Sequence record: PV159336
DNA: 64,000 bases
Direction: 5' to 3' (one strand)
Origin: Escherichia phage W22
Made by a program: the position numbers and the translations under genes. Below, in pieces: positions 3,095 through 53,154 of this stretch. Below the pieces are notes generated by a model. The model saw only the letters and a program-made list of their open reading frames with translations, was not told where the DNA came from and searched no databases. Every line of letters begins with the position of its first letter. The first letter of the stretch is position 1.

Positions 3095-3121
3095 AAAAGG
3101 GCAGAAATGCCCTTTATTTTT
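3095..3121 (+). terminator. rho-independent terminator after tube gene
   Basis: AAGGGCA-GAAA-TGCCCTT hairpin followed by TATTTTT. Confidence 0.5.
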
Positions 3122-3912: not shown

Positions 3913-5892
3913 TTGTTAGAAATTAACACTTCCAAGATTAAGAATACAGTAACGTTTACTGTAGATAAAGACAGTTTAAAAAATACTAAAGACGCAATTA
4001 AAAACCTTAAAACTTTTACAGAATCTATTGAACCATCTTTAAATATGACTAAAATGCGTCGTCAATTTAAAAGTATGGAAGAGTATGCTAAAAGAATAAG
4101 GCAGCAAATGTCAGGTCTTGGCGGCGGTAATCCTCCACCAATCCCACCAACCGGAGGTTCAAGAGGTGGTGGAAAAGGAGGAAGTGGTAGAGGTGGTTCT
4201 GGATCTTCTGGAGGACGTAAAACACCAGAGGAAAGAGCCGCAGAAGCCGCCGCTAAACGTGCAGCACTTGCTAATATGAAGCAAGACGATTTTAGTTTTA
4301 AAGCTATGCCTTTTACAAAAGCAGACAGCAGAATTCTAGAAAAATCTAAAAAGATTGTAGAAGAAACTGTTGAACTTTATCGTAAAGGTGTAATCACTAG
4401 CCAACAAATGAATAATACTTTGGCTAGACAGTTAGAAGAACTACGAAGATCTCATAGAGAGAAGAATGCACAACTTCTTGATGAAGAGAGAGCTAGACGT
4501 AGAATTGCCCGTCTGCAAGAAGCAGAAGATAAAAGAAGACAGCGTATCCGAGAAAGAGAAAGAAAGGATTTCGAACGTCAGCAAAGAAGAGAGAAAGAAG
4601 CAAGACAACGAGATAGACAACGTAAGCTATCTGGTGTAGGTAATGCTGCTATTGCTCTTAACCCTGCTATGTTTGGTGCTGCTCTTTTAGGTGCTGGTTT
4701 ATATCAAGGTATAAGCAAAATAGCTGAAAATATTACAGCGGCGGCAGAACGTATTAATATGGTTAGTAAAGGTGGTCAGAACGTACAGGTAAACCCTAAC
4801 GCAATTTTAACAATGCGTACTTGGGGTGAAATGAACGGTGTAGACTCTGCCAGCATTATTAAAGCCATTGACAATATTAAAGACGTTCGTGAACGTTTAG
4901 GTAATACTGTACTCCACTCTGAATTTGATGAAAAATCAGGTAAATGGAAAGGTGGAGACAGTGGTATTAATGAAATCATGAACCAATTTGGTTGGTCGAA
5001 AGAAGATGTTGCTAAATTCCAGAACAGACCTCTAGACTTTGTTCAAGCACTTGTTAATGAAGGTCAAAAAAGAGGAATGAACTCCGCGCAAATTGGTCGT
5101 TTGATGGAAAACCTTGGTGATGACTTAATGCACTACCAACGTATGTTTTTGGATAACGGTAAAGAGTATATGAAAGTCTTGGATATGTTAAAAAATTCAG
5201 GAGCAACTCTTAACGATGAAAACATCAAAGCAGCACAAGATTTTGTTAAACTAAGAGCAGAAATTAGTGCAGCAGGAGAAGGTTTTACCAATAACTTACT
5301 TGTAGGTTTTATGGATGGTTTAAAATCTGCACCAGATTTTGCAGAAAATATGAAAACTTTCCAAGAAGCTGCTCGTGGTCTTGGTGAAATGTCTGGTAGT
5401 ATTGTAAGTAGCCTTGCAAAAATTGCAAAATATTTCCTTGATTTTTCCAATAAGGTTGGGCCAAAAAACAATACTAAAGAAGCTGTAAGAGATTATTATA
5501 ATGGTACGCAGTATGGGTACGATGCACAGGTTGGTGGTAATCCTTGGGCTTATTGGCCTATTGGAAGAGATCAACATAAACCTGAAAATCAACCTTTAGG
5601 TGACTTTGATAGTAGTTTCTTAACTAGCGCCTTAAATCCAAGTGCTTCTAGTATTGGTTACAACAGACCTGATTTAACAGCATCTATGCTAACACCACGC
5701 CAAGGTGTTCCAGTACCGTTAAGTCTAGAGAATACGGTTGTTATCCCAGACAACGCATTCCAGATTAATGTTATTCCAGATGGTTATGGTTTTAGTAATT
5801 ATCTAGATGCGACAATGAATACCAGTTTTAGTAACTTCTCACAAGGTTTAACTCTTCAGTTAAGCAGTGGACAATCTTCTACTGGTGGTTAA
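3913..5892 (+). CDS. tail tape measure protein
   Basis: 659 aa; Gly-rich segment (GGGNPPPIPPTGGSRGGGKGGSGRGGSGSSGG), long Arg/Glu-rich coiled coil, position after chaperone pair; TTG start 6 nt after GGAGGA. Confidence 0.7.
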   Translation: MLEINTSKIKNTVTFTVDKDSLKNTKDAIKNLKTFTESIEPSLNMTKMRRQFKSMEEYAKRIRQQMSGLGGGNPPPIPPTGGSRGGGKGGSGRGGSGSSGGRKTPEERAAEAAAKRAALANMKQDDFSFKAMPFTKADSRILEKSKKIVEETVELYRKGVITSQQMNNTLARQLEELRRSHREKNAQLLDEERARRRIARLQEAEDKRRQRIRERERKDFERQQRREKEARQRDRQRKLSGVGNAAIALNPAMFGAALLGAGLYQGISKIAENITAAAERINMVSKGGQNVQVNPNAILTMRTWGEMNGVDSASIIKAIDNIKDVRERLGNTVLHSEFDEKSGKWKGGDSGINEIMNQFGWSKEDVAKFQNRPLDFVQALVNEGQKRGMNSAQIGRLMENLGDDLMHYQRMFLDNGKEYMKVLDMLKNSGATLNDENIKAAQDFVKLRAEISAAGEGFTNNLLVGFMDGLKSAPDFAENMKTFQEAARGLGEMSGSIVSSLAKIAKYFLDFSNKVGPKNNTKEAVRDYYNGTQYGYDAQVGGNPWAYWPIGRDQHKPENQPLGDFDSSFLTSALNPSASSIGYNRPDLTASMLTPRQGVPVPLSLENTVVIPDNAFQINVIPDGYGFSNYLDATMNTSFSNFSQGLTLQLSSGQSSTGG

Positions 5893-5897
5893 TGCAT

Positions 5898-5928
5898 AAA
5901 GCCTCGCTTCGGCGGGGCTTTTTATTTG
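5898..5928 (+). terminator. rho-independent terminator after tape measure gene
   Basis: AAGCCTCGC-TTCG-GCGGGGCTT hairpin followed by TTTATTTG. Confidence 0.55.
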
Positions 5929-5930
5929 TC

Positions 5931-5960
5931 TTGACAAAGAGTTGTTTTTCGTGATAAAAT
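5931..5960 (+). promoter_or_regulatory. sigma70-like promoter with extended -10
   Basis: -35 TTGACA (5931-5936), 18-nt spacer, TG at 5952-5953, -10 TAAAAT (5955-5960); same TGTGATAAAATGA string recurs at 17404. Confidence 0.4.
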
Positions 5961-6007
5961 GAGTGATAAGGGAGAATGTTTCTTATCACATTAAGAGGTA
6001 AAATTAT

Positions 6008-6718
6008 ATGGCAGCAAACACTCCAGAACAACACGTTCAAGCGGTTTATAAAGCGGAACAAGATATAAATTCTACAAAAAACACAAATAACTCTGCCTCT
6101 ACTGTGAAAGGGGAGAATGGTTTTTGTATTTTAGCAAGTGTTTACAATAGTGCAAGTGATCAATATATTCAAAACTACCAGGCTATAGTTTTTGATGCTG
6201 TGCCAAATATCGGTGTAAAACGCCAAGCAGATGTTACTAGCTATCCTGTAGAAAATGGTGCTAATGTATCGGATCACGTTCAAGTTAAAAATAATACTTT
6301 CTCTTTATCAGGAATGATTACAGAGACACCTGTAAGATTGATGCGAGATATGCTATATAGTGCTGGTGTTAACGGTACTCGTATCAGTCAAGCAATTACT
6401 TATTTAGATAAAATATTTGATGAAAGACAGCCTATCATTTTAATAACAGAACATAAGGTGTATGAGAATGTTATTTTGAAAGGCATATCATATGAATATC
6501 AAACAGAATATGCAATGCAATTTGACTTGGAATTTGAACAAGTAAGATTAGTTTCCTACGGGGAAACAAATGCTATTGCACTTAAGACAAAACCAAATAA
6601 GAATACAGGTGTTAAAAACAAGAAAGGTACTAGTCCAGATGCTGATTTGGATGCAAGAACAGGGAAAGCAACTGGTACAGAACATCTTAGTGATCACAGT
6701 GCAGATGGTAAAAAATAA
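6008..6718 (+). CDS. hypothetical tail/baseplate protein
   Basis: 236-aa ORF, first gene after tape measure terminator/promoter. Confidence 0.35.
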   Translation: MAANTPEQHVQAVYKAEQDINSTKNTNNSASTVKGENGFCILASVYNSASDQYIQNYQAIVFDAVPNIGVKRQADVTSYPVENGANVSDHVQVKNNTFSLSGMITETPVRLMRDMLYSAGVNGTRISQAITYLDKIFDERQPIILITEHKVYENVILKGISYEYQTEYAMQFDLEFEQVRLVSYGETNAIALKTKPNKNTGVKNKKGTSPDADLDARTGKATGTEHLSDHSADGKK

Positions 6719-6729
6719 GGAGAAAATTT

Positions 6730-7149
6730 TTGGCTATTTCATCTTATTCAAAGATCAGTAGAAGCACATCTAATAGTGGCTACAATGCAGTATTTATTGA
6801 TCGAAATTTAGGTTATTATTCTTGGTACTTACCTACAGAACAGTACCCAGACCAAACATATACGGTAACTCTCGATGGAGTAGATTATGATATACGTTTG
6901 AGATGGAATACAAGAGATCAAGCGTGGCAAATGCAATTAGGATTATCAGGAGACAATCCTAGTGTAACTTTTAAAGTAACTAATGGTTTAGATCTTCTAG
7001 AACCATATAAGTATATAGAATCTGTACCGGATGGTCAACTCTATTTGGTAGATACTGTTAAAATAAACGGTAGACCTAATTACTATGACACAGGTGTAGA
7101 TAAAAGATTTGCTTTGGTTTATATCGACGCTCTTCCATATCAAGCATGA
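6730..7149 (+). CDS. hypothetical tail/baseplate protein
   Basis: 139-aa ORF; TTG start 7 nt after AAGGAG. Confidence 0.35.
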   Translation: MAISSYSKISRSTSNSGYNAVFIDRNLGYYSWYLPTEQYPDQTYTVTLDGVDYDIRLRWNTRDQAWQMQLGLSGDNPSVTFKVTNGLDLLEPYKYIESVPDGQLYLVDTVKINGRPNYYDTGVDKRFALVYIDALPYQA

Positions 7150-7165
7150 TAAAAGGAGTTTTTAA

Positions 7166-8176
7166 ATGGCAGAAGAAAGAAATTACACAAAAGCTCCTGC
7201 ACCAAATCTAAACAGAGCATACAAACTGTTAATAGGTACAGCTACTAATACTAAAGAAAAAAGGACAAAAAATTCCTCTTTCAAATCTACAGTAGACTTA
7301 GATACTAAACTAGGGGATGCTAAAAAATCAACCCCTAATTTGTATGTTATTACGGAGCACCAAATATCTTTCACAATAAGAAAAGATAATAATAAAGATC
7401 CTAATCAAGCCGAGATAACTATTTATAACCTAAGTGATGATACTGTTAATTATATTAACAAAGGTATTCGTAACAACTTGGCTGTTGCTTTGGCAGTAGG
7501 TTATGAAGGTCAAGAGTTAATTATGATCTTTAAGGGAACGGTGCAGTGGGTGAGTGATACCTTTAACAATACAGACAGACGTACAGTGTTACATTGTCTG
7601 GATGGTGGTATTAACATCTCCGAAGCAAGGACAAGCAGAAGTTATCCGAAAGGTACAAAAGTAAGTAAGGTTGTTAAAGATTTAGTTAAAGATTTAGGTA
7701 CTACAGAAGGTAATATTCACGTAGATACAGAGAAAACTTTATCATCTGCAACAGCTATGTGTGGGAACACATCACATTACTTAGAAAGTATCTGTAAAGG
7801 TATTGATCATAATGTGTCAATACAAGACGGATCTGTTTACGTGACACCAAGATCACAAATGTCTAGTGCAAGATGTGCATATATTAGCGCAGAAACAGGT
7901 TTAATTGGTAGTCCAGAACCTTTCCACAATGATATTAAACCGACACAAAAAGTAACCAAATCTTCTAAGAAAGCTAAAAAGCCTACAGATGGTGTTAAGT
8001 TCAGATGTGAGATGAACGGTGCTATTTTACCAGAAAAAACTGTTTGGCTCAAGAGCCATAACTACGATGGTGGTTTTAAGGTGGTGTCTGTTGTTCATAC
8101 AGGCGATAGGGAAGGTAAAGACTGGACAACTGAAGTAGAGTCTGTATCTGTATCTGCAATTATTAAGAAGGGCTAG
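7166..8176 (+). CDS. putative baseplate hub/tail protein
   Basis: 336 aa, position between tape measure and spike gene; assignment by synteny only. Confidence 0.3.
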   Translation: MAEERNYTKAPAPNLNRAYKLLIGTATNTKEKRTKNSSFKSTVDLDTKLGDAKKSTPNLYVITEHQISFTIRKDNNKDPNQAEITIYNLSDDTVNYINKGIRNNLAVALAVGYEGQELIMIFKGTVQWVSDTFNNTDRRTVLHCLDGGINISEARTSRSYPKGTKVSKVVKDLVKDLGTTEGNIHVDTEKTLSSATAMCGNTSHYLESICKGIDHNVSIQDGSVYVTPRSQMSSARCAYISAETGLIGSPEPFHNDIKPTQKVTKSSKKAKKPTDGVKFRCEMNGAILPEKTVWLKSHNYDGGFKVVSVVHTGDREGKDWTTEVESVSVSAIIKKG

Positions 8177-8178
8177 AA

Positions 8179-8916
8179 ATGGATGCTTTAAATTTTGTAA
8201 CAGCAATCCGTGGATTAATCAACGAGCAAGTTGCGGAAGTACATACATCTTTACCTGTAAGGGTAATTGGTGTAGATTATGGATCTAAGACAGTAACTTT
8301 AGAATCTATCGTAAAGAATACCAGATCTACTGAAGATGAAATAGATTACCCAACATTCCACGATGTTCCTTTTATGGTAAATGGTGGTGGTACAGGTAGA
8401 ATTTCATTTCCAATTAAAGCAGGAGATATTGGTGTTGTTGTCTTTTCAGAAAGAGATCCGTCGAATGCTTTCCAGACAGACGGAGATACAGCCAGTAGCG
8501 GAACATTAATTCAACCTTGTGGTTTGTATCCAGCCTGTTTTATTCCTAAGATAGCAACAGCTACGGATTCTTCTGAAGAAGTAGATTCTGAAAAAGTTGT
8601 TATCTCAAATAATAAGCAAACTTACGCTTCGTTTGATCCTAACGGTAATATATCTGTGTACAACACACAAGGTATGAAAATAGATATGACACCAGACAGT
8701 ATCGTTCTTACTGATGCAGGAGGAGGAAAACTTACACTGCAAGGTGGGACTATGACATATAAAGGTGGTACTGTAAATTTAAACGGTTTAACAATCACAC
8801 CTGACGGTCGTATGAAAGATAGTGGTGGCATTGGTTTACACACACATACACACCCTGTACGCGGTGTTGAAACTGGTGGTAGCACTGTTACTTCCGACAA
8901 ACCAAATGGAGGTTAA
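8179..8916 (+). CDS. baseplate central spike protein (gpV/gp5-like)
   Basis: 245 aa; N-terminal region resembles gpV-type spikes, Gly-rich beta-rich C-terminus ending in His-rich tip (HTHTHP). Confidence 0.5.
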   Translation: MDALNFVTAIRGLINEQVAEVHTSLPVRVIGVDYGSKTVTLESIVKNTRSTEDEIDYPTFHDVPFMVNGGGTGRISFPIKAGDIGVVVFSERDPSNAFQTDGDTASSGTLIQPCGLYPACFIPKIATATDSSEEVDSEKVVISNNKQTYASFDPNGNISVYNTQGMKIDMTPDSIVLTDAGGGKLTLQGGTMTYKGGTVNLNGLTITPDGRMKDSGGIGLHTHTHPVRGVETGGSTVTSDKPNGG

Positions 8917-8919
8917 CAG

Positions 8920-9555
8920 ATGGGAATACCATTTGATTTAAAACTTGATGGTTCTAACGATTTAGTAATGGTGGATGGTGATTTAACACTAACCACAACT
9001 AAAAGTGAAATTGCAGCACAGACGCTTGGAATAACACTTAGAACTTTCCGTGGAGAATGGTTCCTCAATTCTAATTTTGGGGTTCCATATCTGCAAGAGA
9101 TTATTGGTGTTGCCAAGAAGAAAGAGATTGTTGATCGCATTTTCTTATCAACTATCGCAAGTAATGTTTATATAGATAATATTAATTCCTACACATCCTC
9201 TTATGATAGAGATGATAGGTATTACTCAATGAACGTTACTGTTACAGTTGGTGAACAAGTTGTTAGTGCGCTGTTCAGTACACAGCCGTCTGAAGAATAT
9301 ATCTATCCAGAAGCTGGTGATGATAATGCAGCAATCACTTGTGAAGCATTTGAAATTGTTGAATCTGCAAATAGACTCTATCGCTTTATTAACATTGTTG
9401 GTCTTCCTAGAAATACTTATTCTACTTGGTGGAATGAGTGGTCTAACGAGGCATTGATTGAAAAATACCTTGTTAACGAAGCCAATAAAGGTCTTGCAAC
9501 CAATTACAACTATGCTATAACAGCAACAATGGGAGCTACAAACAATAATGGCTGA
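8920..9555 (+). CDS. baseplate protein, GPW/gp25-like
   Basis: Motif TLRTFRGEWFLNSNFGVPY resembles GPW/gp25 family core (GER...P.FG); follows spike gene. Confidence 0.45.
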   Translation: MGIPFDLKLDGSNDLVMVDGDLTLTTTKSEIAAQTLGITLRTFRGEWFLNSNFGVPYLQEIIGVAKKKEIVDRIFLSTIASNVYIDNINSYTSSYDRDDRYYSMNVTVTVGEQVVSALFSTQPSEEYIYPEAGDDNAAITCEAFEIVESANRLYRFINIVGLPRNTYSTWWNEWSNEALIEKYLVNEANKGLATNYNYAITATMGATNNNG

Positions 9556-10021
9556 TTTAACTACAATCAAGGTGTCTGATCTACCTGTAACAACATCTGT
9601 TTCAGACACAGATTATTTTGTAACAGATCAATCGGGCATCACTAAGAAAACATCATTACGTGTTCTTCTTGCGGGTGCTGGTGTTACACGAAATCGTCTT
9701 TCTGCAAGGGGTACTGTTACAAACACCCTAGCTTTAGATATTAGTACGGCAGAGTATTTCTCTGCCACTTTATCTAGTCCAACTTGCAGTATTTCATTTA
9801 GTAATGTTCCAGTTACAACTAACATTGTTCAAAACTTTACTCTATCCCTACGTCAAGGAAGTGGAGCAAATAAAGTAACGTGGCCTCAATCTGTTAAATG
9901 GAGTTTTGGTCGCGCTCCTGTTTTGAGTTATAAACAGGGAGCTACAGATATTTTTGAATTTGTTAGTTATGATAATGGAGCTACCTGGATAGGTAGTTTA
10001 GTGATGGCAGGAGTGATTTAA
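9548..10021 (+). CDS. tail fiber-related protein with conserved N-terminal anchor motif
   Basis: N-terminus (TTIKVSDLPVTTSVSDTDYFVTDQSGITKKTS) parallels N-terminus of the EEP fiber at 15074. Confidence 0.4.
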   Translation: MADLTTIKVSDLPVTTSVSDTDYFVTDQSGITKKTSLRVLLAGAGVTRNRLSARGTVTNTLALDISTAEYFSATLSSPTCSISFSNVPVTTNIVQNFTLSLRQGSGANKVTWPQSVKWSFGRAPVLSYKQGATDIFEFVSYDNGATWIGSLVMAGVI

Positions 10022-12897
10022 TGTCAAGAATTAAGCACAGAATTGACAATGTTTTTCAACTGATCGATGGACATATTCAGTTCTTAGATCGTAATACAGG
10101 TTTAACTGTAGATCCTACAGTGCAACACTATGTATTAAACCCACAAAACGTTCTAGCTAATAACAGACACTTTATAAACTGGACTGCTCAAGAAGGGCAA
10201 CCAAACGGGGATGCTACAACAGAAGGTCAATCCGTGCTTATTCTTGGTTGCGCTTATGCATACCTAGCTTCCGGCGATACAAAGTATTTAGACTCTGCTA
10301 AAAAATATTGGCAAGCCTATATAGATTACTTCTTTGGTGGTCAGCCTATTCCAGATCCGCCAGCAAAATATCGCCCTAACTGGATTATTAACGGTAAAGA
10401 ACCACGTCTTGCGCACTATCCTCTTACAGATGATGGCTACCCTACACACGGAGGTTTTAAGGGTAGCTTAATGACGTGGACTAACGGTAGAACAGTTATT
10501 CCTCATGGTGCTCCACATTGGGGAGAATACCTTGACAAAGCATGGTTTGCTTTTAATGGTAATCTAGGATGGAACTCTGTAAACGCTACAGTATATGCTG
10601 TTAATGCAGATGGAACAACAGATTGGTCTAAGAATGGAGATCAATGGGATGTTGATTGGATCATTGATCGTCTAGGACGTAAAGTTGATTGGGATGGAAA
10701 TATCTTAGAAGAAGGTTTTCCAACATCTCAATACGGAACAGTTCAACTAAAAAATACTTCTGTAAACGGTACATATAAATTTAACTACGCGACTTGTAAC
10801 CCTGTTGAACACGGTGGTTATTTAATGGAGCGTAACACTATGTGGCATAACAGACCAGTTAACGTTCCGGTAGAAATGGGCTTTCAGGATAATGCGTCAG
10901 ATGCCGAAACTTGGTGGTGTGATGCTAATTACCTGATGTACCAAATTACAGGAGAAAGAAAATATTGGCTATGCTGGCAGTCTTCACTGTTAGTGTGTCA
11001 AGATTACTCAAACATTGATATGTTTGATAAATTCTTCCGTAAATCTACATATGCAACTATTCCGTTTACAGATGGCATCTCTTACGATTATTCGTATCCA
11101 TCTACAGCAATACCTAAATATTCAAGAGATACTTTAGGTTATATTGTTATTAGACAAGATGTTGCTGCTCAAACAACATTAGAACAGCAAGCCATTTGGT
11201 TTAAAGTGGATCAGAACTCTAAGTTACGAGTTCAGTTTCAAGGTGTAGATGACGCAGGACATGGTATTCTTTTCCGTCCAGAGTTGGAACTAAGTAAGAC
11301 CAAAGATGAAAATAACACAGTAACTTACCGTTGTGGCTTACCACTGGGTACAGCTAGTATGACAAGCATGGATATTCCATTATCCAGCTTTATGAGAAGC
11401 ACCCCTCCGAATGGTGGAACATATATTATCGCAGATCCGCGAATTATTGTTGACTGGGGTGGCAATACTGTGGTACAATTTAAGTATGTAACAGGTATTG
11501 CTGGAACTAATAATGACCAGATTGTTACTGCATCAATGGATACGGATGGTGGTATTACTGTTGGTTTTTGGTTAACTCCTACATCAAAAGCTAATGTTAA
11601 GTCTATTACATATAGAACATATGAAGATGACTTTAACATGACTATCACGGATGCTCAAGGTTGGAGATGGTGGGCTATGCTTCCTAAAACGCAAGGGGCA
11701 TGGAGTACGAAGACTTTATCAGCTTCTGATTTTAAGTTAAGTGCTTACCAGCCTAATCATCCAGAAACAGATCCTAAACCTTCAGCAATAAATCTTACTG
11801 CGGTAGACCAGGTAAATTTAGTTCTCGATACGGCTCCTGTCAATGGTTTAACAGGAACAATAGATTTCTATTGTATTAACGATGTACCTGAAAGATATTC
11901 GTCATCTTCTGGTGATGATTATACCATGTACTTCCGTATCACTGTACAGGCTTCAAGTCCTCATACTGCTAAATTAGGTGATTGTACTATTATTGACTAT
12001 AAGTTAAATAGTCTTAATTACACACCAGGAATAATTCCATTCTCTAATATCAGTGACCCAAACACTGCATTGTATGATGGCTGGCGTGGTATTCCATACC
12101 CAGGATACCAATACCCTTCCTTATACTGTTTTGCAGGTAGAGATATTGATTGGACGCGTTTAAATAACAGTATCAATTTCTTGTATGATGCTCAAATGTG
12201 GTTTTATAACACGTTTGATCCTGTGATGCCTGGGCCTATGGCACAAGCATATGTGTGGGATCGTTGGGATGCAAGAAAATACGGTGAACCTAATACGTTT
12301 ACAATGAAACACTGGAATGAAAAAGCGTGGGATGGTTATGAAGCTCGTGCATTCTACTGTGCTTGTCATGCTGTATACGAACTTGTACAAAGAGGAGAAA
12401 CACCTCCTGAAAAACTAGTAACTGTTTGTAAAAATTGGATCAACTACCTTAAATGGTTCCAAGACAATAATGATGGAAGAACACCAACTATCTTTAACCC
12501 AGATGGTACAGTTCTTGCACCTATAGATGACTTTACTAGTCATATGTCTGCACTGTTTATGGCGGGTTGTTCAATCATGGGCTTGGCAGGTTATGATTCA
12601 CAAATTCCAAACATTGGTATTGTAGCAGACAGATGTTTTGATCTGATTCAGCAAAACTATATTGTGCTTTCCCCTAACCATCCGATGAATGGTTCCTGGA
12701 GTGTTGCACCACGCCCAGATTCAGATAACGGAATGTTCTTTGGTTTCCATGCTGGAGAACTATTACGTGGTTTTGGTTTATATGCCTTGTATCGTAAACT
12801 AAACCCTCAAAACGCTTTACCAATTTTGGATAATAGTAACATACCAACACTAACTGTTCTAACTATGAATGATATTAGTGTTGATGTAACCAAATAA
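10021..12897 (+). CDS. large tail fiber/baseplate-associated protein (possible carbohydrate-active domain)
   Basis: 958 aa, Trp/Tyr-rich; N-terminal segment (GCAYAYLASGDTKYLDSAKKYW) loosely resembles (alpha/alpha)6-barrel glycosidase/lyase motifs. Confidence 0.4.
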   Translation: MSRIKHRIDNVFQLIDGHIQFLDRNTGLTVDPTVQHYVLNPQNVLANNRHFINWTAQEGQPNGDATTEGQSVLILGCAYAYLASGDTKYLDSAKKYWQAYIDYFFGGQPIPDPPAKYRPNWIINGKEPRLAHYPLTDDGYPTHGGFKGSLMTWTNGRTVIPHGAPHWGEYLDKAWFAFNGNLGWNSVNATVYAVNADGTTDWSKNGDQWDVDWIIDRLGRKVDWDGNILEEGFPTSQYGTVQLKNTSVNGTYKFNYATCNPVEHGGYLMERNTMWHNRPVNVPVEMGFQDNASDAETWWCDANYLMYQITGERKYWLCWQSSLLVCQDYSNIDMFDKFFRKSTYATIPFTDGISYDYSYPSTAIPKYSRDTLGYIVIRQDVAAQTTLEQQAIWFKVDQNSKLRVQFQGVDDAGHGILFRPELELSKTKDENNTVTYRCGLPLGTASMTSMDIPLSSFMRSTPPNGGTYIIADPRIIVDWGGNTVVQFKYVTGIAGTNNDQIVTASMDTDGGITVGFWLTPTSKANVKSITYRTYEDDFNMTITDAQGWRWWAMLPKTQGAWSTKTLSASDFKLSAYQPNHPETDPKPSAINLTAVDQVNLVLDTAPVNGLTGTIDFYCINDVPERYSSSSGDDYTMYFRITVQASSPHTAKLGDCTIIDYKLNSLNYTPGIIPFSNISDPNTALYDGWRGIPYPGYQYPSLYCFAGRDIDWTRLNNSINFLYDAQMWFYNTFDPVMPGPMAQAYVWDRWDARKYGEPNTFTMKHWNEKAWDGYEARAFYCACHAVYELVQRGETPPEKLVTVCKNWINYLKWFQDNNDGRTPTIFNPDGTVLAPIDDFTSHMSALFMAGCSIMGLAGYDSQIPNIGIVADRCFDLIQQNYIVLSPNHPMNGSWSVAPRPDSDNGMFFGFHAGELLRGFGLYALYRKLNPQNALPILDNSNIPTLTVLTMNDISVDVTK

Positions 12898-12905
12898 GGA
12901 AAATA

Positions 12906-15065
12906 ATGAAACAGGCTATTTTTACTGTAACTCGAAATACGAGAGTAAATGCCAGTTCATTCAGCTATAAGACCGTCGATGGAACGGCGGTCGCTGGTAG
13001 AGATTATGTAGCTAAACAGGGAACAGTAACGTTCCCTTCTGATGCAGATTCTGCTACTGTAGTGGTTGATGTATATGAACGTCCGGCAAACTCTTTAGAT
13101 CTTTATTTTACTCTTGAGATTACTAGCATAAGTCAAAATAACATGATGATCAACGAAGAAATTCGTTGTGTTATTACGACTGATCAATCGAATACAACCC
13201 CGCTAACTTGGCCTGTTGTGAAGTCTAGAATGTTTGATCCTAAGTTTTGGACAATAGATTCTCAAGCAACAGAAAGTTGTTCTATTATCTCTAATGGTGA
13301 TTCTTTCACAGCAAGAATGGTTAATAGGACAGTGGCTGGTCTTGCTGGGATTATTTGGTCAACTTACGATAAATATGATCACAAAGGATTAGGCTACCAA
13401 GAACATTCTGACTTAAGTAAAGAGAAACTTTGGTTTAAAATGGAACTTAGTCAAGGTGTTCCTGGATTAAAAGAAGAAAAATTAATACCATCCTTAACAG
13501 TGACACTGAAGGATGAAACAGTTCATTATGTATCTCTAAACTTTTATGCAGAAGAAGTTTCAGAGGATGGTAAAACAGCAACAATCAAACTAGATTTCTC
13601 AAATTTAAAATCTGGGCCAGAAAATGATATTGTTGTTGACACTACACAGATAGATAATATGTTCTTCTCCTTGATCTCAACGAGGTATCAAGAAATTGAA
13701 GATATTATTCCTGTAGACAATGAGGATCTTTCCTTTAAGTTTACCATACTGGAGCCTGATACTGGTTACAGTATGATGAATATGGGTAATTTAAATGTTC
13801 CAGCACACACCATAAGAATGTGTACATCTTATGATGATATGTATAACCTGACCCCAGAGCGAGTTATTTCTAACACCTACAGATTAGGTTATAGGGATAT
13901 GATTAACCACTATAATGGTATGTCACACTATTATCAGTTTAGTTGGGATGCTGGTTCTAATAAATGGGCTTTGAATAGAACAGAATATTTAAACCCAGCA
14001 ACAGAAGCATGGTTTGATAATTTCCACGCTAATGCAAAAGCTATGGGCTACACAGTAATGAATTCCTTAAGTTTTGAACTTATGAGTACAGTGTGTCCTG
14101 TAGAATGGGTACAACATACTTGGAATGATAATCTTGCTGCTACAGGTTATGAGCCACCAAGTTATGTTTTATCTCCTTCAATTGATGAAGGGATGAATTA
14201 TTTACAAGGTGTAATAAATAAGATAGCTTCTATATCCGCTGCTAATGATCTTCCGGTTATTATTCAGGTTGGTGAACCGTGGTGGTGGTATAACACAGCT
14301 ACCAATCTACCGTGTATTTATGATTATACAACCAAAGTTGCATTTAATAATGAAACTGGATTGTATGCACAAGATGTTGGTACAGTTAAAAATTATAAAA
14401 CTGGTACACCATATGATGAATATTATGCATTCCTATCTAAAACATTAGGACTGCGTGTTGCTAAATTTGCAACAGATACCAGATTAGCATATCCTGGAGC
14501 TAAAGTTACATTGTTACCATTTGTGCCATCCATTTTGGGTAACGGTATGATGGAATTTGTTAACTTCCCTAAAGATTATTATATCCCAGAAAACTTTGAC
14601 TTTTATTGTTCAGAATGTTATGATTGGTTGTTGGAAGGTAAGATGGAAAGATCTTTCGACGCTATCACAATACCTAATGAGCAACTAGGTTTTAGTTATG
14701 ATAAGATACATTATCTTGCAGGGTTTGTTCCAGATGCAACTCTAGCACCATTATATGGCTTTGATCCTGAATCAGACTACAGAACATATTTGTGGAAAAT
14801 GATTATAGGTAATATTGTATTGAATGACCAGAAGTTTGTTGGTTTATATCAATACATATGGGCTTATCCACAAATAATGCATGATTCAATAACTGTTCTT
14901 AATTCAAAATCCCAAGTTTTTTATATGGGTAATGTGCCTTTGAATTGCTATTTGCAAGATATCACTCTTAAACAGGTAAATGTTACGATTGCTACTATAA
15001 GCGGAATTACATTAGCCACTAAATCTGGAGAAGATTTAGTAACAACACAAAAATTTTATATATAG
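12906..15065 (+). CDS. large tail-associated protein with N-terminal Calx-beta-like domain
   Basis: 719 aa; N-terminal VDGTAVAGRDYVAKQGTVTFPSDADSATVVVDV...LYFTLEI fits Calx-beta pattern (G.A..G.DY...G.l.F). Confidence 0.4.
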   Translation: MKQAIFTVTRNTRVNASSFSYKTVDGTAVAGRDYVAKQGTVTFPSDADSATVVVDVYERPANSLDLYFTLEITSISQNNMMINEEIRCVITTDQSNTTPLTWPVVKSRMFDPKFWTIDSQATESCSIISNGDSFTARMVNRTVAGLAGIIWSTYDKYDHKGLGYQEHSDLSKEKLWFKMELSQGVPGLKEEKLIPSLTVTLKDETVHYVSLNFYAEEVSEDGKTATIKLDFSNLKSGPENDIVVDTTQIDNMFFSLISTRYQEIEDIIPVDNEDLSFKFTILEPDTGYSMMNMGNLNVPAHTIRMCTSYDDMYNLTPERVISNTYRLGYRDMINHYNGMSHYYQFSWDAGSNKWALNRTEYLNPATEAWFDNFHANAKAMGYTVMNSLSFELMSTVCPVEWVQHTWNDNLAATGYEPPSYVLSPSIDEGMNYLQGVINKIASISAANDLPVIIQVGEPWWWYNTATNLPCIYDYTTKVAFNNETGLYAQDVGTVKNYKTGTPYDEYYAFLSKTLGLRVAKFATDTRLAYPGAKVTLLPFVPSILGNGMMEFVNFPKDYYIPENFDFYCSECYDWLLEGKMERSFDAITIPNEQLGFSYDKIHYLAGFVPDATLAPLYGFDPESDYRTYLWKMIIGNIVLNDQKFVGLYQYIWAYPQIMHDSITVLNSKSQVFYMGNVPLNCYLQDITLKQVNVTIATISGITLATKSGEDLVTTQKFYI

Positions 15066-15073
15066 GAGTAAAA

Positions 15074-15988
15074 ATGTCAACTACAATTACTAATTTACCC
15101 GAAACATCAAAAGTTAATGGTTCAGATTACCTGGTTTTAGATCAATCTGATAAAACTGTTAAAAGCACAGTTTCCAACTTTCTTACTGACACTGGGGTGG
15201 TTAAAGATTACACTCGTCCTAATATCCGTCAGTTGATCCGCGACCGTGAGGAAGCATTGATCGGAAACAAGGTTCGCTTTGTAACATGGAACACTCAAGG
15301 ATATAACAGTGTGTACAAGTATTATGGAAAAGACTTCGCTAACCAACAACGTGTAACAGACTTGACAGAGTGGTTCCTTCGCATAGGGGCTGATTTTGTG
15401 GGATCACAAGAAGTCTGGTCTGTGCCAGATCAACCGGATAGATTCTTCGCACAATATCCGTATATTTCTGCTTTCCAGTCTATCTCTCTTTGGGAATCAT
15501 CGCTAGGACGCCGCTACGGAAACCTGGCAGTAGCTACACGCGCTTTGAACAACAGTACGTTTAAGATTTATGACTCTCAGCCTATCCCTGGTGACACCGA
15601 TAAGGAACTCCGTTCATATATCCGAACGGAAATGACGGTAGCAGGAACGACCATCGCAATCTACGTCACACACTTGTCTCTTAATCAGACACGCATAAAT
15701 GAAGAGATTGCCGAGTTGGGGCTGGCAATGCAGAACGACACAGCGACGCACATCGTTGTCATGGGGGACTGGAACACTAACACTGATACTGACTTCGCGC
15801 CGTTCACCGATCATGGATTCACTATGGTGAACAGGTTCGGTGAATTTAACACCAACAACGTTGGCAATACCTGGTATCTCGACCGAATTTTCTACAAAGG
15901 TTTCTCGGCTGAAGATGATCGCGGGGTCTTTGATACTCCTGTGTCACTTGGCGACCACAAGGCTCTCTATGTAGATCTGGTAATTTAA
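15074..15988 (+). CDS. tail fiber protein with endonuclease/exonuclease/phosphatase (EEP) domain
   Basis: Tail-fiber N-terminal anchor motif, then EEP-type motifs RFVTWNTQG, VVMGDWNT and C-terminal GDHKALYVDL. Confidence 0.6.
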   Translation: MSTTITNLPETSKVNGSDYLVLDQSDKTVKSTVSNFLTDTGVVKDYTRPNIRQLIRDREEALIGNKVRFVTWNTQGYNSVYKYYGKDFANQQRVTDLTEWFLRIGADFVGSQEVWSVPDQPDRFFAQYPYISAFQSISLWESSLGRRYGNLAVATRALNNSTFKIYDSQPIPGDTDKELRSYIRTEMTVAGTTIAIYVTHLSLNQTRINEEIAELGLAMQNDTATHIVVMGDWNTNTDTDFAPFTDHGFTMVNRFGEFNTNNVGNTWYLDRIFYKGFSAEDDRGVFDTPVSLGDHKALYVDLVI

Positions 15989-16000
15989 GGGGAAAGGAAA

Positions 16001-17308
16001 ATGAATTTACATACAATTGACGCAAACATACTTGACATGCAGGGGCTGCCTTTGGATCTCCGCATCAACAAGATGCTGTCAGACATCAACCGCCTGTATC
16101 AACGAGGGCAGGTTATACTGCTTACTAAGTTTGCTGATTTAGGTCTTGCTGACACCGAAGCTACAATGGCAAATGTGTTCGCTCGTATGCCTAATAACAC
16201 CATCTTTATGACTGAAGTTTACCGTGGTGTTCACACCAATTTCGACATGCCGACACTAATCAACGGTGCGAGATTATCTGGACGGTTGATTGTCTATGGT
16301 TCGTCCGAGTCAAGTAACAAATTGACTGCATACTTTCAGCAAGAAACAGGTTTGTGGACACGCCACCTGAACAAAGGTGCTGCCACAAATTATACCGATA
16401 CGGGATGGCATAAGATTGAAGTTCATGGTTTGCAAGAGGATCTAACCACAAGCTCTGTGACTAATCTTGAAAACAAGCTGTCAAACCTAAAAACGCCAGG
16501 CATCTATTACATAGCTGGTAGCATAATGTCACAATTCACAGACGTGCCCACAACAGGTTCAGGAGCATCACTGTGTGAAGTGACCTATATTCACCATCTG
16601 GCTGACACAATACAGACTTTGCGTACCAACGGGGTTGCTCAGACCGGGTGGCGTAGACAAATTTCTAACAATGGAACTGTTGGGGAATGGAAACAGGAGT
16701 TTGTTAGTGGCTCTCCTATGAATAGTTCGTCTACTATAAGTTTCGCCGGGGGAACTGTTTCTGGGACATTAACTACAAGGACGCTCCAACCTGAAAAAAC
16801 AGCAACCCACAACATCGGTTATGCTTCTGCTGCATACAATCAAGCGTATTTTCAGAATGCGCCCACAGTTGTTTCTGATGTGAATTATAAACTATTCATA
16901 GACGATATTCCTGACGATGTTTTGGATGCGTGGAGCACGGTTAACTACTATCAGTGGAAAATGAAAACTGCTGTTGCGGAGAAAGGTGAGGAAAAAGCGC
17001 GCCTTCATGTAGGTGTCCTTGCACAAGAAATCAAAGAGAAGTTTGAAGCTGCTGGTTTGGATGCAACCAAGTATGGCATTCTTATCTATGATTGTTGGGA
17101 AGCTGTTGAGGCTGTTGAATATAAACCTGCTGTATACGATCCAGATACTAACGAATTAATCTCTGAAGAAGTTCAGGCTGTTGAAGGACGTGAAGCAGGT
17201 GAGATCTGGATGGTGCGAATGGAAGAGTGTCTTGCTTTAGAAGCGGCACTGATGCGCCGGACTACAAAACGACTGGAAGATCGCATGGCTGCTCTGGAAG
17301 GCAAGTAA
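16001..17308 (+). CDS. tail fiber protein with C-terminal intramolecular chaperone (S74-like) domain
   Basis: 435 aa; C-terminal ARLHVGVLAQEIKEKFEAAGLD...YGIL segment resembles autoproteolytic chaperone domain of endosialidase-type fibers. Confidence 0.5.
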   Translation: MNLHTIDANILDMQGLPLDLRINKMLSDINRLYQRGQVILLTKFADLGLADTEATMANVFARMPNNTIFMTEVYRGVHTNFDMPTLINGARLSGRLIVYGSSESSNKLTAYFQQETGLWTRHLNKGAATNYTDTGWHKIEVHGLQEDLTTSSVTNLENKLSNLKTPGIYYIAGSIMSQFTDVPTTGSGASLCEVTYIHHLADTIQTLRTNGVAQTGWRRQISNNGTVGEWKQEFVSGSPMNSSSTISFAGGTVSGTLTTRTLQPEKTATHNIGYASAAYNQAYFQNAPTVVSDVNYKLFIDDIPDDVLDAWSTVNYYQWKMKTAVAEKGEEKARLHVGVLAQEIKEKFEAAGLDATKYGILIYDCWEAVEAVEYKPAVYDPDTNELISEEVQAVEGREAGEIWMVRMEECLALEAALMRRTTKRLEDRMAALEGK

Positions 17309-17311
17309 ATA

Positions 17312-17331
17312 AAGCCCCGCTTCGGCGGGGA
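17312..17331 (+). terminator. terminator-like hairpin after fiber gene
   Basis: CCCCGC-TTCG-GCGGGG perfect hairpin; weak T-tract on + strand. Confidence 0.4.
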
Positions 17332-17403
17332 ATTATAAAGGTACTATCATGGTCTTCATTACGATTCACACAAACTATGTCCTGCAAGCGCATGTCATCG
17401 CCA

Positions 17404-17414
17404 TGTGATAAAAT
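17404..17414 (+). promoter_or_regulatory. extended -10 promoter-like element (TGTGATAAAAT)
   Basis: TG-n-TAAAAT identical to the element at 5950-5960; lies in 230-bp intergenic region before baseplate J operon. Confidence 0.3.
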
Positions 17415-17539
17415 GATGAAAACATATCGTAGCAGGGTTAATCTTGTCTTTAGTTACTATCGTACTAACTCAAAATGTTGTCACTACCACTGCAAACCCC
17501 TCCAAAGAGGGGCTTACTTAGAAAAACAAAGAGGTTGTT

Positions 17540-17689
17540 ATGAACGAAATGTTCTCCCAAGGCGGTATTGCCCCAGGTACTACTGCCATTAGTCTTAGTG
17601 CTGCTGTACTTGTGCATTCAGCGGGTTCTGTAGACCTTGGGGAATTAGCTGTATATCGTGATTTAAAAAGTAATGAGAACGCACTATGA
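17540..17689 (+). CDS. small hypothetical protein (49 aa), not in ORF track
   Basis: ATG at 17540 preceded by AAAGAGG; stop TGA overlaps ATG of next gene (ATGA coupling). Confidence 0.3.
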   Translation: MNEMFSQGGIAPGTTAISLSAAVLVHSAGSVDLGELAVYRDLKSNENAL

Positions 17690-17931
17690 GAAAATTTTTA
17701 ATAGGTATGTTCTGTACATATCCTGATAATAAAGTCAGTTCTACTAAAGTTTGGAATGCTATTGGTATGATTGTTATGTCCAGTATGTTTATTTATTTGG
17801 GAATTGATAAAGAAATTCCTGAATGGATGGGCTGGGCTTTTGTTTTTATGATCACACCATCTAGACTAATGAAGAATTTAATAGATTTACGTTGGGGCAG
17901 ATCACCTGCCCCTGATAAGGAGGATAACTAA
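17686..17931 (+). CDS. small membrane protein
   Basis: 81 aa with hydrophobic segments (IGMIVMSSMFIYLGI, WMGWAFVFMI); coupled to downstream baseplate gene. Confidence 0.4.
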   Translation: MRKFLIGMFCTYPDNKVSSTKVWNAIGMIVMSSMFIYLGIDKEIPEWMGWAFVFMITPSRLMKNLIDLRWGRSPAPDKEDN

Positions 17932-19418
17932 TGGCAGATTATGGTTTAACAGATGCTGGTTTTGTCATTCCAACATTTGATGATATTCTAAATAATTATA
18001 TGACAGCATTGAAAAACACTTTCGGTGCAGATACAGCTACATCTGAAGATACTGTCTTTGGTCAACTGTTTCGTATTATTGCATATACAGATTACACCCT
18101 TTGGGAAGGTATGCAAGGTGTTTACAATACCCAAACCTTAGATGGTGCAGAAGGTATTTACCTTGATGAAATCTTCTCTAAAAGAGGTTTTTATCGTAAA
18201 GCTGCTTCTGCTGGTAGTGGTTATGCTTATGTTAAATCTAACAATAAGGCAGCTTGGACTTATGAACTAAGCACAGATGTTTATTTTAATGCCGATAACG
18301 ATTTGACATATTATGTCAGTGCACCAACAATGTTGAATGCTAAGATTGGAGCATATACCATTTCTAAAGCAAACGCAACAGCTTCTGGTGAAACTTCTAT
18401 TACTTTCTACATTCAAAGTGCTATTGATGGTGGTCTTAACAGTAAAACACTAAGTCCTAGCAATACAAACTTTATTGTAGATCTCACGAATTTCATTAAA
18501 GCTAACGTATCAACAACAGATCGTGCTTTAGTATGGAATGATGCTAGTAATGTTTACATGGGTTATAATCCAGAAGATAATGTTAACCCAATAGGTCTAG
18601 TAACACCAGTGAAATTTTATGCATCCATTGCAATTGGTACAAAATGGAGTGAAATTCCAGTTACGTGTTCAGACGTTGGTTATAATCCAGTAGGTACAGA
18701 AAGTATTACAGGTATTTCTTCAACGTTTACAGGCTTTTTAGATACAGGTAACTTCTATCCGTTCTCTCCAGGTACAGATGTTGAAACAGATGCAGAATTC
18801 CGTTCTCGTTTCAATGATAATATGGATGAAGCTAATGCTGCTACTCGTGCTGCTATTGTTAAAGCTCTATTACTGACAGATGGTGTGACAAAGGTTAAGA
18901 TTTATGATAACCCTACACTACACGATCAGGAACATGCTCCAGCTATGACATTCCAGACTATTGTGTATGGTGGTACAGCAGAAGAAGTTGCACAGGTTAT
19001 TTATAATACTAAGCCTATTAACACCTTAACTTATGGTACGACAGCAATTACTATCATAACAGAAGATGGTGGTCAAGAAGTAATTCGTTTTTCTCCTGGT
19101 GATAATGCGGAATACTCACTTAAACTGGTATATCAAACTGGCAATGGTAGTGTGTTAAGTACAACAGAAAGGGAAAATATTGTTTCTGCTCTTGCAAACT
19201 TACAGGCTTACTTTGAATTAGGCTCAACAGTAACTAACGATCAGATAAAAGGTGTAATTTATTCTGCACTTGCGTTCGGACGCTTGACTTCTCTCCGTGT
19301 TTATGTTAAACTTAATACTGAGGATGACAGTAAATATAATGAGGGAGATATTACTCCAGCGTACAATGTTGTACCATCCTTTGACCTTGATAATATTTCC
19401 TACGAGTACGGAGTCTAA
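17931..19418 (+). CDS. baseplate J-like protein (gpJ/gp6 family)
   Basis: 495 aa; N-terminal region (GFVIPTFDDILNNYMTALKNTFGAD...LDGAEGIYLDEIFSKRG) resembles baseplate J family. Confidence 0.5.
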   Translation: MADYGLTDAGFVIPTFDDILNNYMTALKNTFGADTATSEDTVFGQLFRIIAYTDYTLWEGMQGVYNTQTLDGAEGIYLDEIFSKRGFYRKAASAGSGYAYVKSNNKAAWTYELSTDVYFNADNDLTYYVSAPTMLNAKIGAYTISKANATASGETSITFYIQSAIDGGLNSKTLSPSNTNFIVDLTNFIKANVSTTDRALVWNDASNVYMGYNPEDNVNPIGLVTPVKFYASIAIGTKWSEIPVTCSDVGYNPVGTESITGISSTFTGFLDTGNFYPFSPGTDVETDAEFRSRFNDNMDEANAATRAAIVKALLLTDGVTKVKIYDNPTLHDQEHAPAMTFQTIVYGGTAEEVAQVIYNTKPINTLTYGTTAITIITEDGGQEVIRFSPGDNAEYSLKLVYQTGNGSVLSTTERENIVSALANLQAYFELGSTVTNDQIKGVIYSALAFGRLTSLRVYVKLNTEDDSKYNEGDITPAYNVVPSFDLDNISYEYGV

Positions 19419-24376: not shown

Positions 24377-24399
24377 AAAGGGGCGAAAGCCCCTTTATA
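24377..24399 (+). terminator. rho-independent terminator
   Basis: AAAGGGGC-GAAA-GCCCCTTT hairpin after stop. Confidence 0.5.
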
Positions 24400-26377: not shown

Positions 26378-26404
26378 AAAGCCCCTTCGGGGGCTTATTA
26401 TTTA
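26378..26404 (+). terminator. rho-independent terminator
   Basis: AAAGCCCC-TTCG-GGGGCTT hairpin followed by ATTATTT. Confidence 0.5.
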
Positions 26405-53126: not shown

Positions 53127-53150
53127 AAAGGAGGCTTTCGCCTCCTTTTA
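53127..53150 (-). terminator. rho-independent terminator after AAA ATPase gene
   Basis: AAAGGAGGC-TTTC-GCCTCCTTT hairpin then TTTATTTAT on - strand. Confidence 0.5.
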
Positions 53151-53154
53151 TCAC

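Follow-up and report, generated by a model that had tools for sequence, protein, structure and literature searches.

Predicted sigma70 extended -10 promoters at two junctions of the tail and baseplate gene cluster of a phi92-like phage

Phages of the phi92 type are used in phage therapy and in host-range work. In E. coli, sigma70 promoters of the extended -10 (TGn) class can function without a -35 hexamer, and a spacer of 17 nt is optimal. The late promoters of T4, TATAAATA, are read through gp55, gp33 and gp45. The closest described case is that of phage rV5, in which MEME retrieved eight late-region copies of the motif TggTAaAAtA, compared by the authors with T4 late promoters (Kropinski et al. 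2013, PMC3606486). Promoters P036, P048 and P051 are listed there as predictions only (Table S4), and no homologues of gp33, gp45 or gp55 were reported. Tailspike genes have conserved 5' ends, thought to aid gene exchange by recombination (PMC11414711).

The window analysed here is a stretch of 64,000 nucleotides from a phi92-like myovirus of E. coli (Justusliebigvirus). The 12-mer GTGATAAAATGA occurs there in two exact + strand copies, at 5951-5962 (site 1) and 17405-17416 (site 2), with no other exact copy in the 64 kb. Each lies in a true intergenic gap, of 115 nt and 231 nt respectively, and no other gap of the + strand structural (tail/baseplate) cluster is as long. A third copy with one mismatch, at 53143-53154 on the - strand, belongs to a terminator hairpin. 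The first-pass annotation had reported one and the same string at both places. This holds for the 12-mer, but not for the 13-mer TGTGATAAAATGA given in its title, which is found at site 2 only, site 1 reading CGTGATAAAATGA.

Both copies can be read as an extended -10, TG-n-TAAAAT, in the same orientation as the downstream gene, the end of the -10 being 47 nt (site 1) or 125 nt (site 2) from the start codon. As in the extended -10 class, the TG stands one base 5' of the hexamer, in an R-T-G context, and TAAAAT matches TATAAT at 5 of 6 positions, including the A at position 2 and the T at position 6. We propose that the two copies are probably -10 regions of extended -10 promoters for the host's sigma70 RNA polymerase, within the late tail/baseplate cluster. 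Transcription of the upstream sheath, tube and tape-measure genes would end at the terminator at 5898-5921 and resume about 45 nt later from TTGACA-N18-TGaTAAAAT (site 1, 5931-5960), giving an mRNA that would begin with a stable stem-loop and go on to cover the genes for the baseplate hub, spike and tail fibre. Site 2 (17406-17414), an extended -10 without a -35, would supply additional transcripts of the tailspike adapter and the baseplate J block, and would have come within a mosaic non-coding junction cassette travelling with receptor-binding-protein genes. The 12-base identity would be convergence on one consensus, plus three or four chance matches. Both sites are ordinary: they would add to a promoter type that is known and was predicted earlier for rV5, and involve no new mechanism.

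The likeness to rV5 lies in the shared -10 type, TGnTAAAAT, and in the position of each rV5 site after a rho-independent terminator in the tail/baseplate cluster. P036 precedes the baseplate J gene, like site 2, and the junction between the rV5 tape-measure gene and the next gene has a terminator (t049) and an extended -10, like site 1. The register given to P048 in the paper differs from the reading made here, TTGTAA-N17-TGATACAAT. TGATAAAATG agrees with the rV5 motif at 8 of 10 positions, the mismatches being the lower-case third position and the last base. However, rV5 belongs to another subfamily, Vequintavirinae, its sequences cannot be aligned with those of the window, and it has eight late-region copies, whereas the late-region gaps of this genome hold only two. 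With T4 late promoters the two sites have in common an A/T-rich, -10-only type of element before late structural genes; neither, however, is TATAAATA, and the TG together with the perfect -35 of site 1 points to sigma70.

The features around site 1 are as follows.

3913-5892: tape measure gene, with the site 1 terminator after it
5898..5921, + strand: intrinsic terminator stem-loop, 10-bp stem with 6 GC pairs, tail TTATTTGTCT, T-run to about 5931
5931..5936, + strand: site 1 -35 hexamer, a perfect TTGACA, 18 nt before TAAAAT
5951..5962, + strand: site 1 12-mer GTGATAAAATGA with the extended -10 (TG at 5952-5953, TAAAAT at 5955-5960)
5963..5989, + strand: stem-loop of 11 bp at what would be the 5' end of the transcript, -12.3 kcal/mol, z = -4.1
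6008..6718, + strand: tail tube initiator gene (phi92 gp135 homologue), the first gene 3' of site 1

The terminator consists of a GC-rich stem-loop followed by the T-run TTTTTATTT on the transcribed strand. The perfect TTGACA at 18-nt spacing, already noticed in the first pass, was confirmed. In all, the promoter agrees with the consensus at 11 of 12 positions, in addition to the TG, and departs from the class in its spacer (18 nt versus the optimal 17). We infer a transcription start at about 5966-5968. Behind the tail tube initiator gene come those for the baseplate hub, spike and tail fibre, through to 17308. Three GTGATAA half-sites at site 1 (5951, 5963 and, inverted, 5983) were considered as an operator and rejected, as they are not kept in ESCO5; they are better explained as arms of the 5' hairpin. 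At the position of the stem-loop, ESCO5 has an 8-bp hairpin of another sequence, and Tr1 only a weak one.

The tape-measure junction was compared in ten lineages: the window, ESCO5, Tr1, the IMG/VR contig L012, DrSchubert, PVP-SE1, Mydo, Hena1, phiTE and Aeromonas phage 2L372D. These span Stephanstirmvirinae, five genera of Vequintavirinae and an Aeromonas phage. TGnTAnnnT is present at the homologous position after the tape-measure stop codon in all ten, and a terminator in nine, the exception being L012, which has no hairpin. Between the window, ESCO5, Tr1 and L012 the spacer has changed in sequence but not in length (18 nt), with TTGACA and TGnTAnnAT preserved on either side of it; all Stephanstirmvirinae examined have the perfect TTGACA at that distance. 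In the other six lineages a terminator is followed, 19-59 nt before the start codon, by an extended -10, which reads TGATACAAT in DrSchubert (rV5-like), TGATAAAAT in PVP-SE1 and Mydo, TGATAAACT in Hena1, TGCTAAAAT in phiTE and TGATAAGAT in 2L372D. Vequintavirinae have a poor -35 or none. The proteins encoded downstream of the junction have only about 30% identity to those of the window. The probability of such a pattern arising by chance is about 1e-5 for the seven diverged lineages, and about 1e-7 for all ten. Support for site 1 as a predicted host sigma70 extended -10 promoter is strong, resting on a phylogenetic footprint of great depth and on the perfect TTGACA. Conservation of the terminator-promoter pair over two subfamilies and beyond suggests a need for separate dosing of the baseplate genes versus the tube, sheath and tape measure genes.

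The second gap is organised differently, and contains the following features.

16001-17308: tail-fibre gene, with hairpin CCCCGCTTCGGCGGGG after it
17315..17330, + strand: hairpin CCCCGCTTCGGCGGGG, next letters AATTATAAA, no T-run on the + strand
17349..17408, + strand: 19-codon micro-ORF (MVFITIHTNYVLQAHVIAM, then a stop), with a TGA stop that includes the TG of the extended -10 of site 2
17367..17539, + strand: core of the non-coding cassette, nearly invariant, from about 40 nt 5' of the -10 through to the start codon
17405..17416, + strand: site 2 12-mer GTGATAAAATGA (TG at 17406-17407, TAAAAT at 17409-17414)
17497..17512, + strand: hairpin 2, CCCCTC-CAAA-GAGGGG, with a ribosome-binding site beyond it at 17528-17534
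17540..17689, + strand: 49-aa ORF, an in-frame deletion form of a 102-aa tailspike N-terminal adapter protein
17686-17931: 81-aa gene; several relatives carry homologues with a membrane-protein annotation
17931..19418, + strand: Baseplate J-like wedge gene (Baseplate_J, E = 3.5e-11), of the block assigned to site 2

Both copies had been described as following a terminator. This is correct for site 1, where the terminator is canonical, but not for site 2: the hairpin at 17315-17330, 75 nt upstream of the motif, is called terminator-like by the scan on the minus strand only, where there is a T-run. The baseplate block placed downstream of site 2 is indeed there, but begins with the 49-aa tailspike-adapter fragment, a form annotated identically in phage alia, and reaches Baseplate_J only from 17931. 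No -35 hexamer was found for site 2, the best candidate having 3 of 6 matches at a distance of 21 nt. The -35-independence of the extended -10 class is what we propose, as a prediction from sequence, for this site.

Site 2 belongs to a non-coding cassette of about 230 nt that phi92 itself lacks; Phapecoctavirus, an N4-like podovirus and certain small, unclassified contigs of phages have it at 94-98% identity. Over the core, identity is 94-98% across Phapecoctavirus, Justusliebigvirus PD114 and Gamaleyavirus U1G, and the flanks diverge. Among 50,697 phage records, the cassette turned up in just 17; no copy was found in a set of one genome per bacterial species, nor in 5,426 E. coli genomes. The site 2 element is invariant in six of the seven aligned cassette copies, the exception being U1G, with GGGATAAAAT (TG mutated to GG). 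At the homologous place BUCT618 has CGTGATATAATGAT, nearer to consensus than site 2, with the element kept as TGATATAAT. In five IMG/VR and metagenome loci (L042, L049, L075, L076 and L077, with L042 and L076 being one contig), the segment extends to about 8 nt past the -10, where it is fused directly to a ribosome-binding site ahead of a baseplate J gene, the remainder of the leader being unlike that of the window. The element is absent from phi92, PaulScherrer and alia, and is therefore dispensable.

Positional analogues were also found. The order in DrSchubert/rV5 (P036) is fibre stop, CCCCGCTTCGGCGGGG with a T-run, TTGACT-N17-TGGTAAAAT, baseplate J. In PVP-SE1 it is tailspike stop, terminator, ATATGATAAAATAGC, baseplate J, and TGATAAAAT is found at both the tape measure and the baseplate J junctions of this phage. 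Conservation support for site 2 consists of these analogues and of the reuse of the segment with a different leader; it is weaker than for site 1. By way of the rV5-like and PVP-SE1 analogues and of the reuse directly before baseplate J, the case for site 2 as a sigma70 extended -10 promoter is moderate.

What does the shared string mean? A same-strand 12-mer common to these two particular gaps arises in about 0.1% of shuffles. However, when all intergenic regions of PD114, the closest complete genome, are shuffled, about 15 shared 12-mers are obtained, so that one isolated shared 12-mer is unremarkable. Moreover, 8 or 9 of the 12 shared bases are plain promoter consensus, and the flanks of the two sites have no similarity. 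The earlier suggestion of a reused, identical promoter can be retained as regards a host sigma70 extended -10, but the wording was too strong, and the identity is best read as coincidence, not as a dedicated regulatory word. PD114 has 53 sigma70-like sites within the intergenic 8.3% of its genome, 15 of them with a TG, site 1 among these; site 1 is a member of a class of about 40 ordinary predicted sigma70-type promoters, distributed over the early and late regions of the genome.

The first pass had also envisaged a phage-specific late regulatory element. In such a case TGnTAAAAT(A) would form a late class read by the host polymerase with a phage factor, as T4 late promoters are, and both copies would be members. 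The eight late-region copies in rV5, likened to T4 late promoters (PMC3606486), speak for it, as do the recurrence of the -10 variant TAAAAT at both junctions in several genera, and the poor or missing -35 in Vequintavirinae and at site 2. Yet the E. coli extended -10 consensus fits the motif with no extra assumption, site 1 has its perfect TTGACA at 18 nt throughout the Stephanstirmvirinae examined, and the rV5 authors reported none of the gp33, gp45 and gp55 homologues (PMC3606486). A genome-wide motif search, proposed in the first pass and run on PD114, argues against a dedicated element: TGNTAAAAT occurs 29 times, of which 4 are intergenic, and neither it nor the 10-mer is enriched in intergenic regions. 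With two late-gap copies, enrichment of the rV5 type upstream of late genes is not seen, and the 12-mer as such is not conserved at site 1 among relatives. Inspection of the late-region gaps by eye for a common late motif gave only sigma70-type promoters and terminators, the remaining predicted promoters of the structural region being plain TTGACA-N17-TAnnnT. We hold a late class to be quite improbable. More weight, although we still consider it unlikely, goes to the possibility that only site 1 is a promoter, site 2 being a chance match in a junction cassette whose conservation would stem from recent horizontal transfer along with receptor-binding-protein genes. As site 2 lacks a -35 and the hairpin upstream is not a + strand terminator, read-through from site 1 may already serve the downstream genes. 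Chance sharing of intergenic 12-mers, the phages that do without the element, the loss of the TG in U1G and the rarity of the cassette all go in this direction. Against it stand the terminator and TGnTAAAAT found at the equivalent position before baseplate J in rV5-like phages and PVP-SE1, the reuse of the promoter-bearing segment with a different leader in other phages, and the retention of the element in BUCT618.

The string at site 2 might otherwise be kept as the TGA TAA tandem stop of a translated micro-ORF (17349-17408), and not as a promoter. Frame and length of this ORF are kept in all nine sequence variants, although indels are found immediately 5' of it; the ATG has a Shine-Dalgarno-like sequence before it (AAGAGG-N7, AAAGG-N7, AGGTG-N3) in each of three upstream classes that have diverged; and the T-to-G change of U1G turns TGA into GGA, the neighbouring TAA then ending translation. 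However, the differences (about 12 non-synonymous versus 3-4 synonymous) are near neutral, with no sign of purifying selection, Ro121c4 has ATT in place of the ATG, and BUCT618 has the -10-like string without the micro-ORF. The peptide, moreover, has no longer homologue and was never annotated. On these grounds the micro-ORF was rejected as a coding gene, and its tandem stop is a quite improbable reason for the string, even if this reading and the promoter reading are not mutually exclusive. As for the cassette, its near-invariance could result from recent horizontal transfer instead of selection. That the gap is a portable junction cassette, made of a hairpin, a micro-ORF stop overlapping the promoter and a near-invariant leader, with a 175-nt core kept by selection, seems doubtful to us. 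Such a cassette may move among virulent Stephanstirmvirinae, U1G (an N4-like podovirus) and small, unclassified contigs of phages with BUCT618-like baseplate genes, and its location may always be the point at which a receptor-binding-protein gene meets the next structural module. If true, it would give a ready-made promoter and homology for swapping receptor-binding genes.

For the preferred reading, two host sigma70 promoters, the outcome is a testable transcription map of the tail/baseplate region of phi92-like phages, in which the tape measure gene is followed by a terminator and a predicted promoter, and the baseplate J block of some genomes is preceded by a further predicted promoter. It can be used for annotation and for the engineering of tail-fibre cassettes. 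In the literature searched, no mapping of transcript 5' ends was found for this phage group.

Other candidates were looked at. Rfam was run over the entire window at gathering thresholds, and permissively over both gaps, and gave only sub-threshold matches to terminator-like hairpins. The site 2 leader does not fold more stably than shuffles (z = -1.4 and -0.4), so that a structured RNA is unsupported, and its variation is too low for a covariation test. A longer ORF from 17413 was dismissed, a 1-nt insertion in ukendt breaking the frame. So was a minus-strand small RNA ending at hairpin 1, for which the sole candidate promoter is weak (GTGACA-17-GATAGT) and falls within the stretch of leader replaced where contigs join the cassette directly to baseplate J. 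Hairpin 2 and its ribosome-binding site form a module common to the tailspike genes of Kuttervirus and G7C-like phages. The 5' part of the cassette, which bears the promoter, is missing from these phages, in which the hairpin stands directly after the preceding tailspike gene. The 3' third of the gap (about 17493-17560) matches their tailspike 5' junctions, made of a hairpin, a ribosome-binding site and an MNEMFSQGG start, at 80-95% identity.

Over 5000-19000 the window is 98-99% identical (megablast) to phi92-like myoviruses (Justusliebigvirus, Stephanstirmvirinae), and gene order was taken from the annotated relatives PaulScherrer, phi92 and PD114, the last being the closest complete genome. 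The + strand order begins with sheath, tube, tape measure, tail tube initiator, hub and spike, followed on the same strand by three large tail-fibre genes. A small tailspike-adapter gene and an 81-aa gene come next, and then baseplate J and more fibre genes.

Genes of the structural cluster (from annotated relatives; baseplate J from Pfam Baseplate_J)
3913-5892, + strand, tape measure gene
6008-6718, + strand, tail tube initiator
17308, + strand, end of the third large tail-fibre gene
17931-19418, + strand, baseplate J
up to 29234, + strand, further fibre genes downstream of baseplate J

The 12-mer GTGATAAAATGA occurs exactly twice in the window, at 5951-5962 (site 1) and 17405-17416 (site 2). 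The first-pass annotation had described an identical extended -10 element after two late-operon terminators, each copy preceding a baseplate gene block; this was real in its essentials, save for the length of the string, the second terminator and the gene downstream of site 2. The preceding base is C at site 1 versus T at site 2, so that the 13-mer of its title is present at site 2 only. No real gaps in the structural cluster are longer than the two that hold the sites (115 and 231 nt), and these two share a same-strand 12-mer in about 0.1% of shuffles. By itself the exact identity carries little weight, because about 15 shared 12-mers arise in shuffles of all PD114 intergenic DNA, the 9-mer TGNTAAAAT was found 29 times in a genome-wide search of PD114, with only 4 intergenic occurrences, and a third copy of the 12-mer, at 53143 with one mismatch, lies within a terminator. 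Deliberate reuse of one sequence is not supported. Relatives do not keep the 12-mer at site 1 (TGTGTTACAATAAT in ESCO5, CATGCTATCATAAC in the IMG/VR contig L012).

At site 1, as had been noted, TTGACA (5931-5936) and an 18-nt spacer precede TG-a-TAAAAT, just downstream of a canonical terminator (5898-5921). Intergenic DNA of PD114 (8.3% of the genome) contains 53 sites of sigma70 type (TTGACA with no more than one mismatch, 16-18 nt, TAnnnT-like), 15 of them with TG, in early regions, around tRNA genes and inside the structural module. Site 1 is typical of these sites, and it is very probably a promoter; a special phage late element is not supported. The predicted transcript starts with an 11-bp stem-loop (5963-5989, z = -4.1). 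At the homologous place, an 8-bp hairpin of another sequence is present in ESCO5 and only a weak one in Citrobacter phage Tr1; the stem-loop may be a 5' stabilising hairpin.

Comparison with relatives argues strongly for a promoter at site 1. ESCO5 (Phapecoctavirus), Tr1 and L012 keep TTGACA, the 18-nt spacing and TGnTAnnAT, while the spacer diverges. In L012 (1080-1140) a 12-bp inverted repeat, TTGTACATCAGT ... ACTGATGTACAA, brackets the promoter from just 5' of the -35 to just 3' of the -10 element. In six more distant phages, whose downstream protein shares only about 30% identity with that of the window, the tape measure/tube initiator junction again has, in this order, a stop codon, a GC hairpin and its T-run, and an extended -10, the latter 19-59 nt upstream of the start codon.

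Extended -10 elements at the site 1 junction of distant phages
DrSchubert (rV5-like), TGATACAAT
PVP-SE1, TGATAAAAT
Mydo, TGATAAAAT
Hena1, TGATAAACT
phiTE, TGCTAAAAT
Aeromonas phage 2L372D, TGATAAGAT

The motif TGNTANNNT is present in 10-48% of shuffled junctions, and the joint chance of the site 1 pattern is about 1e-5 for the seven clearly diverged lineages, or about 1e-7 for all ten. The arrangement is widespread, not universal, since IMG/VR relatives L013-L028, with a downstream protein 60-78% identical to that of the window, have a short junction without promoter.

In the rV5 genome, 33 sigma70-like promoters were predicted, 11 with extended -10 regions, and a MEME motif, TggTAaAAtA, was found upstream of eight late genes, several right after terminators; P036, before baseplate J, is among its sites (PMC3606486). 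Sites 1 and 2 are the phi92-group counterparts of these predictions and further examples of a known element type. In the literature searched, no 5' ends of transcripts were reported for phages of these subfamilies. Another predicted sigma70-like promoter (TTGCAA-N17-TATACT) lies at 1-61, directly 5' of gene 62-478; together with hairpins at 2563-2580, 3096-3115, 24378-24396 and 26381-26396, it suggests that several short units of transcription make up the structural cluster.

Site 2 repeats the TG-a-TAAAAT of site 1, with no -35. The hairpin upstream (17315-17330) is followed by AATTATAAA and is therefore not terminator-like on the + strand, and the small tailspike-adapter and 81-aa genes come before baseplate J. 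This hairpin, CCCCGCTTCGGCGGGG, has an A-run upstream and no T-run downstream, and resembles a minus-strand terminator, yet the neighbouring genes are all on the + strand; DrSchubert (L081, about 5225-5250) carries the same hairpin with a T-run. A terminator accompanied by TGGTAAAAT or TGATAAAAT separates the fibre/tailspike gene from baseplate J in rV5-like phages and PVP-SE1, and PVP-SE1 carries TGATAAAAT at both junctions, the same picture as in the window. Against a required role, the element is absent from phi92, PaulScherrer and alia, and U1G has GG for TG. Overall, a promoter at site 2 is moderately supported.

As a minor alternative, the string could be kept as the stop region of a 19-codon ORF (17349-17408, MVFITIHTNYVLQAHVIAM), the TGA of TGTGATAAAAT being its stop codon and overlapping the -10-like element. 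The frame is retained in 9/9 variants (Stephanstirmvirinae, podovirus U1G, unclassified IMG/VR and metagenome contigs), Shine-Dalgarno-like sequences precede it in three diverged upstream classes, and the T-to-G change of U1G in the TGA is followed at once by a TAA stop. However, differences are mostly non-synonymous in a near-neutral pattern, one copy begins with ATT, the peptide has no other homologue and was never annotated, and BUCT618, which lacks the ORF, retains the -10-like string.

The gap around site 2 is itself the most intriguing loose end: a mobile, nearly invariant non-coding cassette.

Cassette copies
window, 17309-17539
U1G (L002), 2478-2726
L042, 8422-8676

This 231-nt, three-part mosaic is shared at 94-98% identity with TSP7_1, ukendt, ZCKP1 and Ro121c4 (all Phapecoctavirus), PD114 (Justusliebigvirus) and U1G, an N4-like podovirus. 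It is more conserved than the coding DNA on both sides, which diverges. Copies fall into three diverged classes upstream of about 17367, and from there to the start codon only about eight positions vary. Kuttervirus and G7C-like phages have the 3' third, with its hairpin (17497-17512), ribosome-binding site and MNEMFSQGG start, as the junction preceding their tailspike genes. Five IMG/VR and metagenome loci, of which two are one contig, carry the 5' part, with downstream baseplate genes similar to those of BUCT618; there, the segment to about 8 nt beyond the -10 runs straight into a ribosome-binding site and a baseplate J gene. BUCT618 has CGTGATATAATGAT at the homologous place, immediately 3' of the stop codon of another upstream gene. 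The cassette was found in only 17/50,697 phage records, and neither in 5,426 E. coli genomes nor in one genome per bacterial species.

Unrelated groups of phages have the cassette in common: large virulent myoviruses, the N4-like podovirus, and unclassified phage contigs of small size. One metagenome contig, L077, has a hydrophobic ORF of 27 codons, MFIFAGILAVFVLFVVLVIRCSVAGYG, just 5' of the cassette hairpin on the opposite strand (about 5740-5820, minus strand); its ribosome-binding site is strong. In the window, a 49-aa ORF (17540-17689) corresponds to the 102-aa tailspike N-terminal adapter protein of PD114, TSP7_1 and PaulScherrer with residues 10-62 deleted in frame; as phage alia has the same short form annotated, this is an established variant and no one-off defect.
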